Below are positions 31,101 through 50,596 of a DNA stretch of 64,000 bases, one piece after another. Within the stretch, counting starts at the first letter, position 1. The number at the start of each line of letters is the position of its first letter. The stretch lies in the NCBI RefSeq assembly GCF_003018235.1, contig NZ_CP027437.1. The stretch is one strand, 5' to 3'. Both the position numbers and the translations under genes were made by a program. The notes beneath the pieces were generated by a model. It did not search any database and was not told where the DNA came from. It saw only the letters and a list, made by a program, of their open reading frames with translations. This stretch comes from Escherichia coli. Its GTDB lineage: Bacteria > Pseudomonadota > Gammaproteobacteria > Enterobacterales > Enterobacteriaceae.

Positions 31101-31533
31101 GTCCGCGAACCAGATTGAAGGCGATCTCGTTAAAACAGTGGGCAAAGCTTTCCCCCGGGACTCCCGTGCACCGGAACGGTGGCCATCAGGGACCATTACC
31201 GTCAGGGTTTATGACGATCAGCCGTTTGACCGGCAGATTGTTATTCCGGCGGTGGCATTCAGCGGCGCTAAACATGAGAGAGAGCATACTGATATTTACT
31301 CCTCATGCCGTCTGATAGTGCGGAAAAACGGTGCTGAAATTTATAACCGTACCGCGCTGGATAATACGCTGATTTACAGTGGCGTTATTGATATGCCTGC
31401 CGGTCACGGTCACATGACGCTGGAGTTTTCGGTGTCAGCATGGCTGGTAAATGACTGGTATCCCACAGCAAGTATCAGCGATTTGCTGGTTGTGGTGATG
31501 AAGAAAGCCACCGCAGGCATCAGTATCAGCTGA
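28138..31533 (+). CDS. Host specificity protein J (central tail fibre), 1131 aa
   Basis: Size and position as lambda gpJ, following M-L-K-I. Confidence 0.95.
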
Positions 31534-31599
31534 ATTTTATAACCCATATACGGGCACCAGAAATGGTGCTTTTTTTTTGCAGAAAAGCGAGAGGTAATT

Positions 31600-32199
31600 A
31601 TGCGTAAACTTTATGCCGCCATTTTGTCCGCAGCCATTTGTCTGGCCGTATCCGGTGCGCCTGCATGGGCATCTGAACATCAGTCCACGCTGAGCGCGGG
31701 GTATCTTCATGCCTCGACGAACGTTCCCGGCAGCGATGATCTTAACGGGATTAACGTGAAATACCGTTATGAGTTTACGGACACACTGGGGCTGGTGACG
31801 TCATTCAGCTATGCAGGAGACAAGAATCGCCAGCTTACCCGTTACAGCGATACCCGCTGGCATGAAGATTCCGTTCGTAACCGCTGGTTCAGCGTGATGG
31901 CGGGGCCGTCTGTGCGCGTGAATGAATGGTTCAGCGCGTATGCGATGGCGGGTGTGGCTTACAGCCGTGTGTCGACTTTCTCCGGGGATTATCTCCGCGT
32001 AACTGACAACAAGGGGAAAACGCACGACGTGCTGACCGGAAGTGATGACGGTCGCCACAGCAACACGTCTCTGGCGTGGGGAGCTGGCGTGCAGTTTAAC
32101 CCGACCGAATCCGTGGCCATTGATATTGCTTATGAAGGCTCCGGCAGTGGCGACTGGCGCACTGACGGTTTCATCGTGGGTGTCGGTTATAAATTCTGA
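31600..32199 (+). CDS. lom: Lom-like outer membrane protein (Ail/Lom family)
   Basis: Signal peptide, beta-barrel alternation and C-terminal GVGYKF. Confidence 0.9.
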
Positions 32200-32226
32200 T
32201 TAGCCAGGTAACACAGTGTTATGACA

Positions 32227-32252
32227 GCCCGCCGGTTCAGGCGGGCTTTTTT
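32227..32252 (+). terminator. Rho-independent terminator after lom
   Basis: Hairpin gcccgcc-ggttca-ggcgggc followed by tttttt. Confidence 0.75.
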
Positions 32253-32263
32253 GTGGGGTGAAT

Positions 32264-35200
32264 ATGGCAGTAAAGATTTCAGGTGTACTGAAAGACGGCA
32301 CAGGAAAACCGGTACAGAACTGCACAATCCAGCTGAAAGCAAAACGTAACAGCACCACGGTGGTGGTGAACACGCTGGCCTCAGAAAATCCGGATGAAGC
32401 CGGGCGTTACAGTATGGACGTTGAGTATGGTCAGTACAGCGTTATTCTGTTGGTGGAGGGATTCCCGCCGTCACATGCCGGGACTATCACCGTGTATGAA
32501 GATTCTCAACCCGGTACGCTGAATGATTTTCTCGGTGCCATGACGGAGGATGATGCCCGTCCGGAGGCACTGCGCCGTTTTGAAGTGATGGTGGAAGAGG
32601 TGGCGCGTAACGCGTCCGCAGTGGCACAGAACACGGCAGCCGCGAAGAAGTCAGCCGGCGATGCCAGCACATCAGCCCGTGAGGCGGCAACCCATGCGAC
32701 TGATGCTGCAGACTCAGCACGCGCAGCCAGCACGTCAGCCGGACAGGCCGTGTCGTCGGCTCAGTCAGCGTCTTCCAGCGCAGGAACTGCATCAGCAAAG
32801 GCCACTGAAGCATCAAAAAGTGCTGCCGCTGCAGAGTCCTCAAAAAGCGCGGCGGCCACCAGTGCCGGTGCGGCAAAAACGTCAGAAACGAATGCTTCAG
32901 CGTCACAACAATCAGCAGCCACTTCTGCATCCACCGCGACCACGAAAGCGTCAGAAGCTGCCACCTCAGCCCGGGATGCGGCGGCCTCAAAAGAGGCAGC
33001 GAAATCATCAGAAACGAACGCATCCTCGAGCGCCAGTAGTTCCGCTTCCTCGGCAACGGCGGCAGGAAATTCCGCGAAGGCGGCAAAAACGTCCGAGACG
33101 AACGCCAGGTCTTCTGAGACGGCAGCGGGACAGAGCGCCTCAGCTGCGGCAGGCTCAAAAACAGCGGCTGCATCATCTGCCAGTGCCGCGTCAACAAGTG
33201 CCGGGCAGGCCTCAGCCAGTGCCACTGCCGCCGGAAAATTGGCAGAAAGCGCTGCATTGTCCGCTTCAACAGCCACAACGAAGGCTGGCGAAGCCGCTGA
33301 ACAGGCCAGCGCAGCAGCGAGGTCTGCATCCGCAGCGAAGACATCCGAAACGAACGCGAAAGCGTCGGAAACCAGTGCAGAATCCTCAAAAACGGCAGCT
33401 GCATCGTCCGCCAGTTCGGCGGCGTCATCGGCATCATCTGCGTCTGCTTCAAAAGATGAGGCGACCAGACAGGCATCAGCAGCGAAAGGCAGCGCCACGA
33501 CGGCATCCACGAAGGCGACAGAGGCTGCTGGCAGTGCGACGGCGGCAGCACAGAGCAAGAATACGGCAGAATCCGCAGCAACGCGCGCCGAGACAGCAGC
33601 TAAACGGGCAGAGGATATTGCATCCGCCGTGGCGCTTGAGGATGCAAGTACGACGAAAAAGGGGATAGTACAGCTCAGCAGTGCGACCAACAGTTCGTCT
33701 GAAACGCTGGCGGCAACGCCAAAGGCAGTAAAATCAGCCTATGACAATGCAGAGAAACGTCTGCAGAAAGACCAGAACGGCGCTGATATACCCGATAAGG
33801 GACGCTTCCTGAACAACATTAACGCGGTCAGTAAAACAGACTTTGCTGATAAGCGTGGTATGCGTTATGTGCGGGTTAACGCTCCTGCAGGTGCAATATC
33901 TGGAAAATATTACCCTGTTGTTGTTATGCGTTCTGCTGGCTCAGTAAGCGAACTGGCATCAAGGGTCATTATCACCACGGCAACGCGAACCGCAGGCGAT
34001 CCGATGAATAACTGCGAGTTTAACGGATTTGTTATGCCTGGTGGCTGGACTGACAGGGGGCGTTATGCTTATGGAATGTTCTGGCAATATCAAAACAATG
34101 AACGAGCCATCCACTCAATAATGATGAGTAATAAGGGCGATGATTTGCGCTCTGTGTTCTATGTTGATGGCGCTGCTTTCCCTGTTTTTGCGTTTATCGA
34201 AGATGGCCTGTCAATATCCGCACCTGGTGCTGATCTCGTTGTTAATGATACGACCTATAAGTTTGGGGCAACAAATCCGGCGACTGAATGTATCGCGGCG
34301 GACGTTATCCTTGATTTTAAGAGTGGGCGTGGTTTTTATGAGTCTCATTCGTTAATTGTTAACGATAACTTGTCGTGCAAAAAACTTTTTGCCACAGACG
34401 AAATTGTAGCGCGTGGTGGTAATCAGATTCGAATGATAGGTGGGGAGTATGGTGCATTATGGCGTAATGATGGCGCTAAAACTTACCTGCTGCTTACCAA
34501 TCGAGGTGATGTTTATGGTGGCTGGAATACATTAAGACCGTTTGCTATTGATAACGCAACCGGCGAACTGGTTATTGGAACCAAACTGTCCGCAAGTCTG
34601 AACGGTAATGCATTAACAGCAACAAAGCTGCAAACGCCAAGACTGGTTTCTGGTGTTGAGTTTGATGGTTCCAAAGATATTACTTTAACCGCCGCGCATG
34701 TGGCTGCTTTTGCCAGAAGGGCAACGGATACATATGCCGATGCGGATGGTGGCGTTCCCTGGAATGCCGAATCAGGCGCTTACAATGTCACCCGCTCTGG
34801 CGACAGCTATATTCTGGTTAACTTCTATACCGGAGTCGGAAGTTGCCGGACCCTGCAGATGAAGGCGCATTACAGAAATGGTGGTCTGTTCTACCGTTCT
34901 TCAAGAGATGGCTATGGTTTTGAGGAAGACTGGGCAGAAGTTTATACCTCGAAAAATCTTCCACCAGAAAGCTACCCAGTCGGCGCACCAATCCCGTGGC
35001 CATCAGATACCGTTCCGTCTGGTTATGCCCTGATGCAGGGGCAGACTTTTGACAAATCTGCCTACCCGAAACTTGCAGCCGCTTATCCGTCAGGCGTGAT
35101 CCCTGATATGCGTGGCTGGACGATTAAGGGCAAGCCCGCCAGTGGTCGTGCCGTATTGTCTCAGGAACAGGATGGCATTAAATCGCATACCCACAGCGCC

Positions 35201-35677
35201 AGCGCATCCAGTACGGATTTGGGGACGAAAACCACATCGTCGTTTGATTACGGCACTAAATCCACGAATAACACCGGGGCGCATACGCACAGTCTGAGTG
35301 GCTCTACGGGGTCTGCCGGTGCTCATACTCATGGTAATGGTATTCGTTGGCCAGGAGGCGGCGGTTCTGCGTTAGCATTTTATGATGGCGGTGGGTTCAC
35401 TTATGTCCAGGATTCACAGTATCAAGTAAGCCCGGGGACTTCTTCCAGTAGATCGTATTATCAACGTATTCAGACACAGTCAGCAGGTGCTCATACCCAC
35501 TCGCTGTCTGGTACTGCAGCAAATGCTGGCGCACATGCACATACTGTAGGTATTGGTGCGCATACGCACTCGGTTGCGATTGGGTCACATGGACACACCA
35601 TCACCGTTAACGCTGCTGGTAACGCGGAAAACACCGTCAAAAACATCGCATTTAACTATATTGTGAGGCTCGCATAA
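32264..35677 (+). CDS. stf: Side tail fibre protein Stf
   Basis: N-terminus [26 protein letters not shown]; ~330-residue Ala/Ser/Thr-rich repeat region; C-terminal GAHTHS His-x-His repeats. Confidence 0.9.
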
Positions 35678-36252
35678 TGGCATTCAGAATGAGTGAACAA
35701 GCACGGACCATAAAAATTTATAACCTGCTGGCCGGAACTAATGAATTTATTGGTGAAGGTGACGCATATATTCCTCCTCATACAGGTCTGCCTGCAAACA
35801 GTACCGATATTGCACCGCCAGATATTCCGGCTGGCTTTGTGGCTGTTTTCAACAGTGATGAGGCATCGTGGCATCTCGTTGAAGACCATCGGGGAAAAAC
35901 GGTCTATGACGTGGCTTCCGGCGACGCGTTATTTATTTCTGAACTCGGCTCATTACCGGAAAATGTCACCTGGTTATCCCCGGAAGGGGAGTTTCAGAAG
36001 TGGAACGGTACAGCCTGGGTGAAGGATACGGAAGCAGAAAAACTGTTCCGGATCCGGGAGGCGGAAGAAACAAAAAACAGCCTGATGCAGGTAGCCAGTG
36101 AGCATATAGCGCCGCTTCAGGATGCTGTGGATCTGGAGATCGCAACGGAGGAAGAAACCTTGTTGCTGGAAGCCTGGAAAAAGTATCGGGTGTTGCTGAA
36201 CCGTGTTGATACATCAACTGCACCGGATATTGAATGGCCAGCCCTACCGTAG
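35677..36252 (+). CDS. tfa: Tail fibre assembly protein Tfa
   Basis: 191 aa; start overlaps stf stop (ATAATGG). Confidence 0.85.
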
Positions 36253-36349
36253 GGTAAGATATATAAATTCTATAATTAGAAGTATCTTTCCATTTAAGGC
36301 TAGGAAGGGGGGCTTGGAAAACGTAAGGAATCTCACACCGAGATTATTT

Positions 36350-36940
36350 TTATATATCAGGTGTCTGATTTTTTGCTTTAGCTCTTAAAATGGTTTGCCG
36401 CGAGGTTTTGAATTCTTGGGCAATGTCACTTATATTTATACCTGACTTAATTTGCTCTAGTACCCTCTGTATTTGTTCATCATTTAACACAGGTGGGCGA
36501 CCAAATCGCTTTCCTGCGCCCCGTGCTCTTAATATCCCTGAATGAGTACGCTCAAGTAAAAGGTCTCGCTCAAATTCAGCGACTGCTGAAATTACTTGCA
36601 TCATCATTTTTCCAGGTGGACTGGTCAGGTCAACGCCCCCCAATGCTAAGCAATGCACTTTGATACCTGCTTTGGTCAGTTGTTCCACCGTTTTACTGAT
36701 ATCCATTGGATTACAACCGAGGCGATCCAGTTTTGTGACAATCAATGCATCACCTCTTTTCAGTCGATCAAGCAACTGGTTAAAACCAGGACGCTCACTG
36801 GTTGCTGCTGAGCCGCTAATTTGTTCTTCAATTATTTGCTGAGATTTGATGTTAAAACCTGCACTTTCGATTTCCCGACGTTGATTTTTGGTTGTCTGTT
36901 CCAGAGTTGATACCCGACAGTAAGCATAAATTCGAGACAT
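36350..36940 (-). CDS. pinQ: Serine recombinase (Pin/Gin-type DNA invertase homologue), 196 aa
   Basis: N-terminal catalytic YCRVSTLEQ and C-terminal HTH; matches K-12 PinQ in size and position. Confidence 0.85.
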
Positions 36941-37258
36941 AGTGAGATCTTCTATACGAAATTGGTGTACATATCATAATGCATCTCAGAAAATAATTTT
37001 GATTATTTTTGTACATATTTGTATGTACACGTTCGAAAATAAACGAATGCGTATGCAACCCCGTAATTTTGGTGAGACCCAAAATCGATTTTGTGAAAAA
37101 TGGCCTTAACTCGGTTTGTTTTTCGAGTTCCGGGGGGACTCAAGGAAGAAGAATAGTGTTGCGTGTTATTTTAACCAGATTTCAAGTTGTTTGGTCGTGA
37201 AAAAGTGGAGCAAAATGTTGTTAAAGTGGAAAAATGATAAAAAAGTAAGTTTATTATA

Positions 37259-37492
37259 TTACATTTTACCATTTAAATTTTTGTTGTCTTTAAGAACTGA
37301 TATCGCTGTTTGTAATAATTCTTTGTTATCCAGCCATGACTTTTTCTTTATGTTTCCTTCAATGTAATCAAGCAATGTTCTGGTATTGATAGGTCTTCCC
37401 TGTTTTGCTACTTCCACTACAGCATCCCCTAGGATAATTCTTACTTCAGGAAGCTGCGCAGGGAACCACTTTAGGGTGTCTTTTGATTTCAT
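37259..37492 (-). CDS. ydfK: Small protein YdfK (YnaE family), 77 aa
   Basis: MKSKDTLKWFPAQLPEVRIILGDAVVEVAKQGRPINTRTLLDYIEGNIKKKSWLDNKELL... Confidence 0.85.
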   Translation of the reverse strand: MKSKDTLKWFPAQLPEVRIILGDAVVEVAKQGRPINTRTLLDYIEGNIKKKSWLDNKELLQTAISVLKDNKNLNGKM

Positions 37493-38277
37493 GAAGATAT
37501 TCCTTAAAATATTATTGATTTTCATTGCGATATTGTATGTCTGATTCAGGATATGTTGACTTATACATCGGTTTTGTCTGGGTTATTGGATATGCCAATC
37601 CCTAATTTTATTAGAGCATGACTAAAAATGCTGAATATGATAAGGAGCGAAGTGATTATCAGTATGCTGTTCATATAGCCTCGAATTAGTAATGTGTTAT
37701 ATATGATATAGTTGACAATTTTTATCCTGGGTGTTCTTAAAGTTCGTAGATAAACATTGTCGTTTCAGGTATACAGGAATGCTAACAGGTGGCGGCAAAA
37801 ATCAGGCGGTTTATGGCGCAAGCTGAAGTGGCAACTGCAAACTATCTTATGCAGAGACTCTACACGGATTGGGTTTAAAAGTATACATAGATAACAGTTT
37901 TTATCTGAAGAAGAAAAATATCAAGGTGATATAGCCTATATGCCTTTGATGCGGAGGAATGAATGTGATGGGAGTGATGTATCTGAATAGTTGAAAAACC
38001 GCAGACACGCCTTATGCAAGAACGTGCTGCGGTTGGCTGGTAAATTTTTCGATAGTGCGAGTATTGAATGATTTCCAGCCGTTATTGATTTTACGCGTAA
38101 ATCCATGAAAAAACTACTTATCTGTTGGGGAGTTTTTTTGGGGCATATATGGGACAGAAATAGGCCCCAGATAGACACTGAGATCGAACTTAGGATGCTT
38201 TTTAAAAAATGCAACTATCTGAAAAAACCTAGAAAACGCCAAGGAAACCACAGGATGGGAAAAAACACCTGTGAATT

Positions 38278-39561
38278 ATGGATTTCCAGTTATATTCGCT
38301 CGGCGCAGCGTTAGTGTTTCATGAAATATTTTTTCCTGAATCATCAACGGCAATGGCGTTAATTCTGGCAATGGGAACCTACAGTGCAGGTTATGTGGCG
38401 CGTATTGTCGGAGCATTTATTTTCGGCAAAATGGGCGACAGAATCGGGCGTAAAAAAGTGCTCTTTATTACCATCACTATGATGGGGATCTGTACCACCT
38501 TAATTGGTGTGCTGCCGACCTATGCACAAATTGGTGTGTTTGCGCCAATTTTGCTGGTGACGCTGCGTATTATTCAGGGGCTGGGGGCAGGCGCGGAAAT
38601 TTCCGGTGCCGGCACGATGCTGGCGGAATATGCACCAAAAGGTAAGCGCGGAATTATCTCCTCATTTGTGGCTATGGGAACTAACTGCGGAACCTTGAGC
38701 GCAACGGCAATCTGGGCCTTTATGTTCTTCATTCTCAGTAAAGAGGAACTGCTGGCGTGGGGATGGCGTATACCGTTCCTGGCGAGCGTTGTCGTGATGG
38801 TCTTTGCTATCTGGTTGCGTATGAATCTGAAAGAAAGCCCGGTCTTTGAGAAGGTTAACGACAGCAACCAACCGACAGCAAAACCTGCACCTGCTGGTAG
38901 CATGTTCCAGAGCAAATCCTTCTGGCTGGCAACAGGGCTGCGTTTTGGTCAGGCTGGTAACTCCGGTTTAATTCAGACTTTCCTTGCAGGCTATTTAGTA
39001 CAGACGTTATTGTTTAACAAAGCAATTCCAACAGATGCATTGATGATCAGTTCGATTCTCGGCTTTATGACCATTCCGTTCCTTGGTTGGTTATCCGATA
39101 AAATTGGTCGCCGGATCCCGTATATTATTATGAATACCTCCGCGATTGTGCTGGCATGGCCAATGCTTTCTATCATCGTAGATAAAAGCTATGCCCCGAG
39201 CACCATTATGGTGGCACTGATTGTGATTCATAACTGTGCGGTGCTGGGATTATTTGCTCTGGAAAACATTACCATGGCAGAAATGTTCGGCTGTAAAAAC
39301 CGCTTTACCCGGATGGCCATTTCTAAAGAAATTGGTGGTCTTATCGCTTCCGGTTTTGGTCCTATCCTGGCGGGTATTTTCTGCACCATGACGGAGTCCT
39401 GGTATCCGATCGCCATTATGATCATGGCATATTCAGTGATTGGTTTAATCTCTGCGCTGAAAATGCCAGAAGTGAAAGACCGTGATTTAAGTGCGCTGGA
39501 AGACGCTGCGGAAGATCAACCGCGTGTTGTCAGAGCTGCGCAACCTTCCAGAAGTCTTTAA
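38278..39561 (+). pseudogene. ydfJ: MFS metabolite:H+ symporter YdfJ, N-terminally truncated by the prophage insertion
   Basis: 427-aa ProP/KgtP-like transporter ORF; in-frame stop 2 codons upstream of the first Met. Confidence 0.8.
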
Positions 39562-49900: not shown

Positions 49901-50596
49901 TCGCGGGAAAAAGTACTTTACCTGGAACTCGAAAATATTGCTGTAAAGTAACGAATAATCCAGCGGAATAGAGTTACTGTCCACAGCCTGGGTCTGAATT
50001 TTAAGTATGGGATCCCGTGGGCTGATCCGTAAAATACTGGCGATTTCTGGGGTAGGAAAAGTAGGGGAGAAAGTTTCAAAGGTGCCAATGATTTTGATCC
50101 CGCATTCGTTCTCAATATACGAAAATTTGGATTTTTGCATATGTGCTACGGTTAAATCAGGAAAACGTGCCACTGACATCCACGTTTCTTCTAATTGTGC
50201 TGCATTATCCTCAATGAATCGCAGTCTCTTTATGTAATAAACCTGCTCACCAGTCACTAAATTCAGCTCAGTCGCAATAGGGGGAGAAGCATCCTGCACT
50301 TCAAATTTCATAATCTGACTTCCTGCCTCCTTGCCGCTTTTATGCGCAATTTCACTGAAGCTGTTCATGTGATCAATGTGTGCAACAAAATTCTTTTTTT
50401 GAATATATGTTCCTGAACCATGCTTTCTATGAATAATTCCTTCGCCTTCCAGCAAGGATAATGCCTTACGCAGGGTATTACGCGAAACATTATAACGAAC
50501 AGCGAGTTCAGCTTCTGACGGCAACAAATCACCAACATGCCATGAATAGCCATTGATCTCGGATTTAAGTAAGCGGGCAATCTTTTGAAAAATCAC
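49898..50596 (-). CDS. GntR/HutC-family transcriptional regulator (probable repressor of the adjacent PTS operon)
   Basis: N-terminal winged HTH, C-terminal UTRA-like domain; GTG start with SD aaggtg; divergent from the PTS operon. Confidence 0.8.
   Translation of the reverse strand: MIFQKIARLLKSEINGYSWHVGDLLPSEAELAVRYNVSRNTLRKALSLLEGEGIIHRKHGSGTYIQKKNFVAHIDHMNSFSEIAHKSGKEAGSQIMKFEVQDASPPIATELNLVTGEQVYYIKRLRFIEDNAAQLEETWMSVARFPDLTVAHMQKSKFSYIENECGIKIIGTFETFSPTFPTPEIASILRISPRDPILKIQTQAVDSNSIPLDYSLLYSNIFEFQVKYFFPR

Follow-up and report, generated by a model that had tools for sequence, protein, structure and literature searches.

The gene pinQ, annotated as a DNA invertase, lies in a lambdoid prophage within the 64,000-nucleotide stretch of the Escherichia coli chromosome analysed here (contig NZ_CP027437.1, assembly GCF_003018235.1; hereafter the window), where the prophage occupies the Qin site and adjoins ydfJ. 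We consider it likely that pinQ is the tnpR gene of a decayed Tn3-family transposon, encoding a recombinase that is probably dead or near-dead at this locus and has been kept as a DNA-binding protein. Alignment with intact transposons demonstrates the descent of pinQ from such an element, and reveals at the locus a single decayed recombination site (res), the loss of the transposase gene tnpA and an arginine-to-cysteine change. With TnpA absent, the locus is a relic and not a transposon. A sequence-only reading of the same DNA had seen in pinQ a Pin/Gin-type gene placed directly after stf-tfa on the opposite strand, the usual place for a host-range switching invertase. The placement was confirmed, pinQ being an intact open reading frame (ORF) convergent with stf and tfa; the class and the presumed function were not, as shown below. 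The span concerned, 36253-37258, consists of pinQ and its two intergenic flanks.

PinQ is a transposon-type resolvase

PinQ carries the Pfam domains Resolvase (E=1e-37) and HTH_7 (E=2e-11); NCBIfam gave sub-threshold matches only. In a joint alignment, PinQ was only 35-38% identical to PinE, Gin and Cin (37-38% for PinE), which share 75-82% identity among themselves, and 33% identical to gamma-delta resolvase. A search of the PDB with PinQ scored Gin at 99 bits and gamma-delta resolvase at 85 bits. Much closer relatives were the TnpR proteins of ~3.8-kb Tn3-family transposons on plasmids, with 74-80% identity to PinQ, a result that overturns the Pin/Gin-type assignment. By tblastn, ~1,850 plasmids carry a homologue, for the most part 60-80% identical; they come from Klebsiella, Escherichia and Enterobacter, and from alpha-proteobacteria at 50-57%. 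Phage records yielded only 11 matches at 80-90% identity, and all five of these among the matches listed were lambdoid E. coli phages; the bona fide invertases Cin, Gin and Fin were 32-35% identical to PinQ in these records. Prophage and plasmid proteins hardly differ in the recognition helix and the E-helix. Automatic annotation places 'pinR' or 'DNA-invertase from lambdoid prophage Rac' on the tnpR of Tn3-family transposons of Klebsiella resistance plasmids; naming tnpR after pinR reverses the true descent.

The plasmid homologues are divergent from an adjoining, often interrupted Tn3-family transposase in which DUF4158 and DDE_Tnp_Tn3 domains were recognised (E=2e-150), and the elements end in 38-bp GGGG...TAAG inverted repeats (IRs), GGGGTCCGCTTGGAAAACGGAAATTATCCCACGCTAAG. 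The gene order is IR, tnpA, res, tnpR, IR, over ~3.8 kb. Intact versions were found in Shewanella baltica (CP002811, CP002813) as three identical copies of 3,815 bp. In each, a 160-bp intergenic res separates the genes of a 994-aa TnpA and a 196-aa TnpR, the latter sharing 76% identity with the PinQ of the window. The 38-bp IRs of the copies are perfect, and clean 5-bp target duplications flank two of the three copies (TTTAA and ATGGG). The third, chromosomal copy, in the opposite orientation to the first, shows no matching duplication; both features are what intramolecular transposition or recombination would leave. The Shewanella element is an active minimal Tn3-family transposon. No target-site duplication was found around the copy on pECOED.

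Transposon remnants flank pinQ on both sides

Homology between the window and the pECOED transposon extends past both ends of pinQ (blastn, 36312-37022, 82%), and Arsenophonus plasmids carry it on to 37038. Downstream of pinQ we identified a relic of the terminal IR (IRR; Table 1). Its outer GGGG end points toward tfa, 7 nt separate its inner end from the pinQ stop, and its placement relative to the stop is that of the IR after tnpR in pECOED and Shewanella. Aligned with the transposon IR, the relic scored 41, whereas 5000 random 36-mers of the window averaged 4.8 and did not exceed 27.

Upstream of pinQ, the window (res, 36953-37055) is colinear with the region between tnpA and tnpR in six transposon copies, and the alignment runs ungapped from site I as far as the ATG. 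All three subsites of a Tn3-type res could be placed in this region, which overlaps the inferred pinQ promoter. The octamer TGTACATA occurs three times in the 64-kb window, each time inside one 64-bp stretch of this region (36966-37029). Scored with a matrix of plasmid half-sites, site II was the best match to site-II geometry in the window, at 17.1 bits compared with 31.1 for the plasmid site and a mean shuffle maximum of 11.5. Site I has decayed further: the plasmid half-sites are TGACCGAAA/TGTCCGAAA, and the window site scored 8.6-8.7 bits against 27-29 for functional copies and 15.0 for the phage 2H10 site, so that it is recognisable in the window by position alone. Replacement of its left half by resolvase exchange at the crossover was considered and set aside, since phage 2H10 retains a better left half (6/9), which makes decay more likely. 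The IR and res relics also flank pinR of the K-12 Rac prophage, pinQ of K-12 Qin and the homologue in phage 2H10.

The remainder of the transposon is gone. Unrelated DNA stands to the left of site I in place of the conserved tnpA leader, and tblastn of the 994-aa TnpA against the window recovered no tnpA remnant (best E=1.8). No second Tn3-type IR was found in the window; a candidate at ~37108-37140 (…CCGGGGGGAC…) reads as a hairpin with a 6-bp stem, has the wrong polarity and lacks transposon homology. Nor did the window yield a second res; among other dyads the best, at 50116, scored within the shuffle range.

Table 1. Features of the pinQ locus, with coordinates in the window.
Feature	Position	Strand	Basis or remark
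stf, side tail-fibre gene, 1139 aa	32258..35677	+	Pfam phage_tail_N, Gp34_trimer, Collar; context
tfa, tail-fibre assembly gene, 191 aa	35677..36252	+	Caudo_TAP E=2e-44; context
Relic of terminal inverted repeat (IRR), GGGGGGCTTGGAAAACGTAAGGAATCTCACACCGAG	36307..36342	+	27/38 positions identical to the 38-bp transposon IR
pinQ, intact ORF, 196-aa small serine recombinase of TnpR (resolvase) type	36350..36940	-	
Codon 76, TGT (Cys); CGT (Arg) in plasmid/transposon TnpR	36713..36715	-	Equivalent to catalytic R71 of Tn3/gamma-delta resolvase (alignment)
res subsite III, TGTACACCAATTTCGTATA	36953..36971	-	Nearly identical to plasmid transposon copies (alignments)
TATGAT, inferred -10 of the pinQ promoter	36973..36978	-	Between subsites II and III; conserved block, TATAAT in plasmids
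res subsite II, TGTACAAAA + 14 nt + TTTCTGAGA	36984..37015	-	9+14+9 as in plasmid copies; right half with 2 mismatches
Site I-II spacer, 14 bp	37016-37029	-	
res subsite I (crossover), CATACGCAT + 8 nt + TTTCGAACG	37030..37055	-	9+8+9; right half kept, left half decayed
ydfK-like ORF, 88 aa, upstream of pinQ	37259..37525	-	Flanking phage/moron DNA, outside the transposon relic

The fibre genes carry no invertible segment

The sequence-only reading had reported a single tfa without an inverted alternative fibre end and no pair of crossover sites around stf/tfa, and both observations were borne out. Queries with tfa, the C-terminus of stf and TfaE/TfaP of e14 against all six frames of the window (tblastn) found one stf and one tfa and no second copy of either. 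The gix/hix-like weight-matrix search that this reading had proposed was run over the 64 kb, with half-sites of gix, cix and pix from Mu, P1 and K-12 e14, and returned nothing above shuffle level: the best full site reached 11.7 bits, as against 28-33 for real sites and a mean shuffled maximum of 13.6. The layout sought, two inverted 26-bp sites of the TTCTCNNAAACC-NN-GGTTTNNGAGAA type, does not occur in the window. Within 32000-38000 the best Din half-site scored 12.7 bits and had no partner, and AAACCNNGGTTT with at most one mismatch had no match near the pinQ locus. All inverted repeats in 31500-38300 were short and of chance strength, none being long. In Din-family systems a Fis-dependent recombinational enhancer lies within the 5' part of the invertase gene; Fis sites are highly degenerate in sequence, and pinQ itself is without DNA homology to cin or gin.

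Two apparent crossover candidates were rejected. The perfect dyad TGTACATAtttgTATGTACA (37010-37029) is made up of the spacer between sites I and II together with the left half of res site II, and neither phage 2H10 nor K-12 has it in perfect form. The inverted repeat between stf and res at 35560-35575 / 37041-37056 (16 nt, 88%) is no stronger than several chance pairs. A second such pair, 35263-35289 / 37048-37074 (27 nt, 74%), is probably also due to chance; in both pairs the stf partner is made of His-rich repeat codons, GCGCATACGCAC, encoding AHTH, and the other partner is the decayed left half of site I.

No invertible fibre segment was ever to be expected here, as pinQ is the remnant of a transposon tnpR. 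The earlier suggestion that the invertase is orphaned holds in the sense that nothing among the tail-fibre genes serves the recombinase as a cis target. Its location after tfa is not that of a host-range switch, pinQ being the tnpR of a Tn3-family relic that retains a terminal IR, tnpR and res.

PinQ has lost a catalytic arginine and is under purifying selection

The motif KLDRLGRN of the family reads KLDRLGCN in PinQ. TGT occupies codon 76 both in the allele of the window and in the allele shared by K-12 and 2H10. Among 120 cluster representatives of the family, 113 have DRLGR and four DRLGC, and these four are the prophage clusters, with 374, 2,148, 6 and 1,066 member sequences. The full catalytic set of Tn3 resolvase (Y6, R8, S10, D36, R68, R71) is incomplete in PinQ, where R71 has become Cys76. 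At the position of Tn3 D36 PinQ has E39, and E is also found in the active Shewanella TnpR. In Tn3 resolvase, the R71A and R71K mutants gave no detectable recombination and cleaved ~1000-fold more slowly (PMC2794168). The sequence-only reading had named an inactivating mutation in pinQ as something that would count against it; the ORF is intact, and the replacement of the catalytic arginine by Cys76 is arguably such a mutation.

Between the alleles of the window and of K-12, identity is 85% for the protein and 90% for the DNA. The two Cys alleles differ by 33 non-synonymous and 25 synonymous changes, giving a pN/pS of 0.40 (P=8e-4); pN/pS against the plasmid gene was 0.22-0.27.

On the chromosome of E. 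coli GCA_910593615.1, a prophage copy in the ynaE-recombinase-tfa context encodes a protein that is mostly of plasmid-transposon type, including Arg76, and of PinQ type only in its last ~10 residues (RAKAKLQTPDI). From its mosaic sequence, this copy looks as if a plasmid transposon and the prophage relic had undergone gene conversion. Similar plasmid/prophage chimeras occur in several single-member metagenome clusters (P0004-P0007).

The relic travels with its neighbours among lambdoid prophages

The relic was present in 2,678-2,796 of 5,426 complete E. coli genomes (2,796 for the 761-bp stretch) and was almost always chromosomal, only 6 of 3,375 E. coli matches being on plasmids. Across 32000-38500, 99.7% identity to the window was recorded for strain STEC2018-607 and for the complete genome NZ_CP075697.1, and at least 80% of this segment is colinear in 765 complete genomes. 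The gene order of the window (ydfK/ynaE, pin, tfa, stf) is that of K-12 Qin and Rac; phage 2H10 has fibre, tfa, pinQ, two small ORFs and int in succession. In all sampled genomes matching both flanks, tfa and ydfK were kept apart by the same 749-bp relic. No empty site with tfa joined to ydfK was detected in 60 sampled E. coli records, and no intact transposon was present at this position in these records or among phage records. Since the same relic recurs throughout and neither an empty site nor an intact transposon was found, the tfa-relic-ydfK block moves as a whole between lambdoid prophages, at Qin and Rac as well as elsewhere.

The ydfK-like ORF measures 88 aa here, counted from the first start codon, compared with the 77-aa YdfK annotated in K-12; it had no Pfam match in our scan, and the precomputed annotation of a homologue gives PF27475 (YnaE). 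Between ydfK and res, outside the transposon homology, lie a perfect 14-bp palindrome, CAAAATCGATTTTG (37080-37093), and the hairpin AACTCG-N10-CGAGTT with a 6-bp stem (37108-37129). Both are conserved in K-12 Qin and Rac.

A model for the origin and present role of pinQ

We propose that an ancestor of today's lambdoid phages received a small cryptic Tn3-family transposon downstream of tfa, and that the element later lost tnpA. The insertion would have fallen in a dispensable accessory stretch, running from the fibre genes to the integrase and attachment-site end. The remnant of the element spans 36307-37055, with one terminal IR, tnpR (pinQ) and a three-subsite res overlapping the pinQ promoter. 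A resolvase requires two res sites in cis. Since only one decayed copy is present, with site I degenerate and R71 replaced by Cys, the recombinase is, on our analysis, most likely dead or nearly dead at the locus. Neither resolution nor inversion in cis should then be possible, and PinQ would play no part in fibre switching. As TnpR does in Tn3, PinQ probably still binds res subsites II and III, located on either side of its -10, and represses its own gene; autorepression through these two subsites is, in our analysis, the most likely function. Any wider role, for example on the orientation of the e14 P segment, would be that of a DNA-binding modulator or of a very weak enzyme.

Several observations weigh against parts of this scheme. 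Purifying selection, as read from the allele comparison, shows that the protein still does something. The other catalytic residues (Y7, R9, S11, R73, E124 and R125) are intact. A generic promoter/terminator scan, uninformative overall, did not call a promoter at res, and the lack of an empty site among the sampled records means that the insertion event is not directly documented. Finally, the share of e14 P segments in the inverted state rose from 30% to 88% when PinQ was overproduced and fell when pinQ was deleted (PMC12529663); if this effect is direct, an enzyme with Cys76 is active on foreign sites.

The last point comes from Kirigo et al. (NAR 2025, PMC12529663), who reported that K-12 PinQ protects from T2 by inverting the e14 P segment in trans. 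The suggestion in the sequence-only reading that PinQ may act on a distant site finds support in this report for the K-12 allele, although direct catalysis was not demonstrated there. Taken at face value, PinQ would be an active trans invertase at the e14 pix sites, making a chimeric Stf that blocks T2 adsorption. Overproduced PinQ gave 88% inverted segments compared with 26-30% in controls, T2 survivors carry the P-segment inversion, the anti-T2 effect requires stfP, stfE and e14, and pinQ deletion sensitises cells to T2 (PMC12529663). Scored with the PinQ-family half-site matrix, pixL and pixR were moreover the best matches within the 6.5 kb of the e14 locus, and weak binding by the overproduced protein is possible. 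These matches reach only 5-7 bits, however, with a spacing of 6-7 instead of 8, against 27-29 bits for a cognate site I. A pinE mutant remained locked in one orientation although pinQ and pinR were present, and the PinQ effect was measured only with PinE present (PMC12529663). A freely reversible invertase should approach 50:50, as overproduced PinE did at 49% (PMC12529663), and 88% would rather point to selection or modulation. PinQ has only 37-38% identity to PinE and Cys in place of the catalytic Arg, and the allele of the window differs from the K-12 protein assayed at 15% of residues. A colinear K-12-type P segment with pinE was found in 170 complete genomes (copies in the inverted state being missed) and the pinQ relic in ~2,700, so that e14 inversion cannot be the general reason for the retention of pinQ. 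We therefore regard direct trans inversion as unlikely; an indirect or modulatory effect of PinQ fits better than direct catalysis with the need for PinE, the directional bias, Cys76 and the low identity to PinE. One possible, if tentative, form of such an effect is that PinQ and PinR are domesticated, catalytically crippled TnpR proteins that act as sequence-specific DNA binders rather than as recombinases, the arginine having been lost in the ancestor of both prophage alleles and the protein having since been retained by purifying selection in roughly half of E. coli genomes and in lambdoid phages such as 2H10. Equally tentatively, and as part of the same proposal, they could repress their own promoter, repress incoming related transposons, or bias the orientation set by PinE through weak binding to Din sites. 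If true, this last role would re-explain the published anti-T2 phenotype without catalysis by PinQ.

PinQ could also be a functional resolvase acting on the res of related plasmid-borne transposons, in cointegrate resolution or tnpA repression, or between the res sites of Rac and Qin. The near invariance of the recognition helix and E-helix between prophage and plasmid proteins is in its favour, as are the abundance of related transposons on enterobacterial plasmids, the prophage copy apparently gene-converted from a plasmid transposon, which indicates that both types meet in cells, and the purifying selection on pinQ. By our analysis, however, Cys76 should cripple catalysis, while repression would survive, and the relic itself is hardly ever found on E. 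coli plasmids; we consider this reading very improbable. The idea that PinQ is a true Din-family tail-fibre invertase whose segment and crossover sites were deleted owes its appeal to the neighbouring stf-tfa and to the historical name and annotation 'DNA invertase'. It is effectively refuted: the gap between 35-38% identity to Din proteins and 75-82% within that family, the transposon TnpRs as nearest relatives, the Tn3-type IR and three-subsite res on either side of the gene, and the lack of any Din half-site trace better than a partnerless match in 32000-38000 all oppose it.

Implications

Earlier publications already describe pinQ as an orphan and propose a distant target for it. In the literature searched, where coverage was limited, we found no link of PinQ or PinR to Tn3-family transposons and no mention of the Arg-to-Cys change; the transposon ancestry and the missing arginine of pinQ and pinR thus appear unreported. 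The finding is a reinterpretation within known kinds of element and not a new type of system. The genes concerned, carried by roughly half of the sequenced E. coli genomes, go by the annotation 'DNA invertase' everywhere, and the reinterpretation explains the missing invertible segment and corrects the expectation of host-range switching. It also questions the mechanism in the 2025 report that made PinQ the founding example of 'recombinase-activated' phage defence, because an arginine essential in Tn3 resolvase has been lost, the cognate site is unlike pix and inversion still needs PinE.

Comparison with known systems

PinQ belongs to the same superfamily as the Din invertases (Gin of Mu, Cin of P1, PinE of e14, and Hin), with the same domain layout and a similar size. 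Phage-borne members of that group adjoin tail-fibre genes, as PinQ does, and the recombination site is 26 bp long in both. The Din proteins differ from PinQ in half-site sequence and over most of their residues, and they are without the insertions FNIKSQ and SAAT specific to the PinQ family. They come with crossover sites, an invertible segment and alternative tfa/stf ends, none of which is present at pinQ.

In K-12, PinQ (Qin) and PinR (Rac), known from the anti-T2 'recombinase-activated' defence, share with the window the locus, the gene order, the IR and res relics and Cys76. The K-12 PinQ prophage is less complete; that of the window is much more so, with a full-length stf. The trans-inversion phenotype was reported for the K-12 allele.

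The closest known systems are the 3.8-kb cryptic elements of pECOED, of Klebsiella IncFIB plasmids and of Shewanella baltica, with Tn3/gamma-delta as the textbook reference. Tn3-family tnpR elements encode a Resolvase plus HTH_7 protein with a three-subsite res overlapping the promoter upstream, and the same arrangement is found at pinQ; a GGGG...TAAG repeat follows directly after their tnpR stop, where the relic lies at pinQ. The half-sites of the pinQ family, TGT(C/A)CGAAA, resemble site I of gamma-delta, whose half-site is CGTCCGAAA. Site I at pinQ spans 26 bp (9+8+9), compared with 28 bp in Tn3. Unlike the intact elements, the pinQ relic is without tnpA, the second IR and the tnpA-proximal promoter region, its site I has decayed, and the residue corresponding to R71 is Cys.

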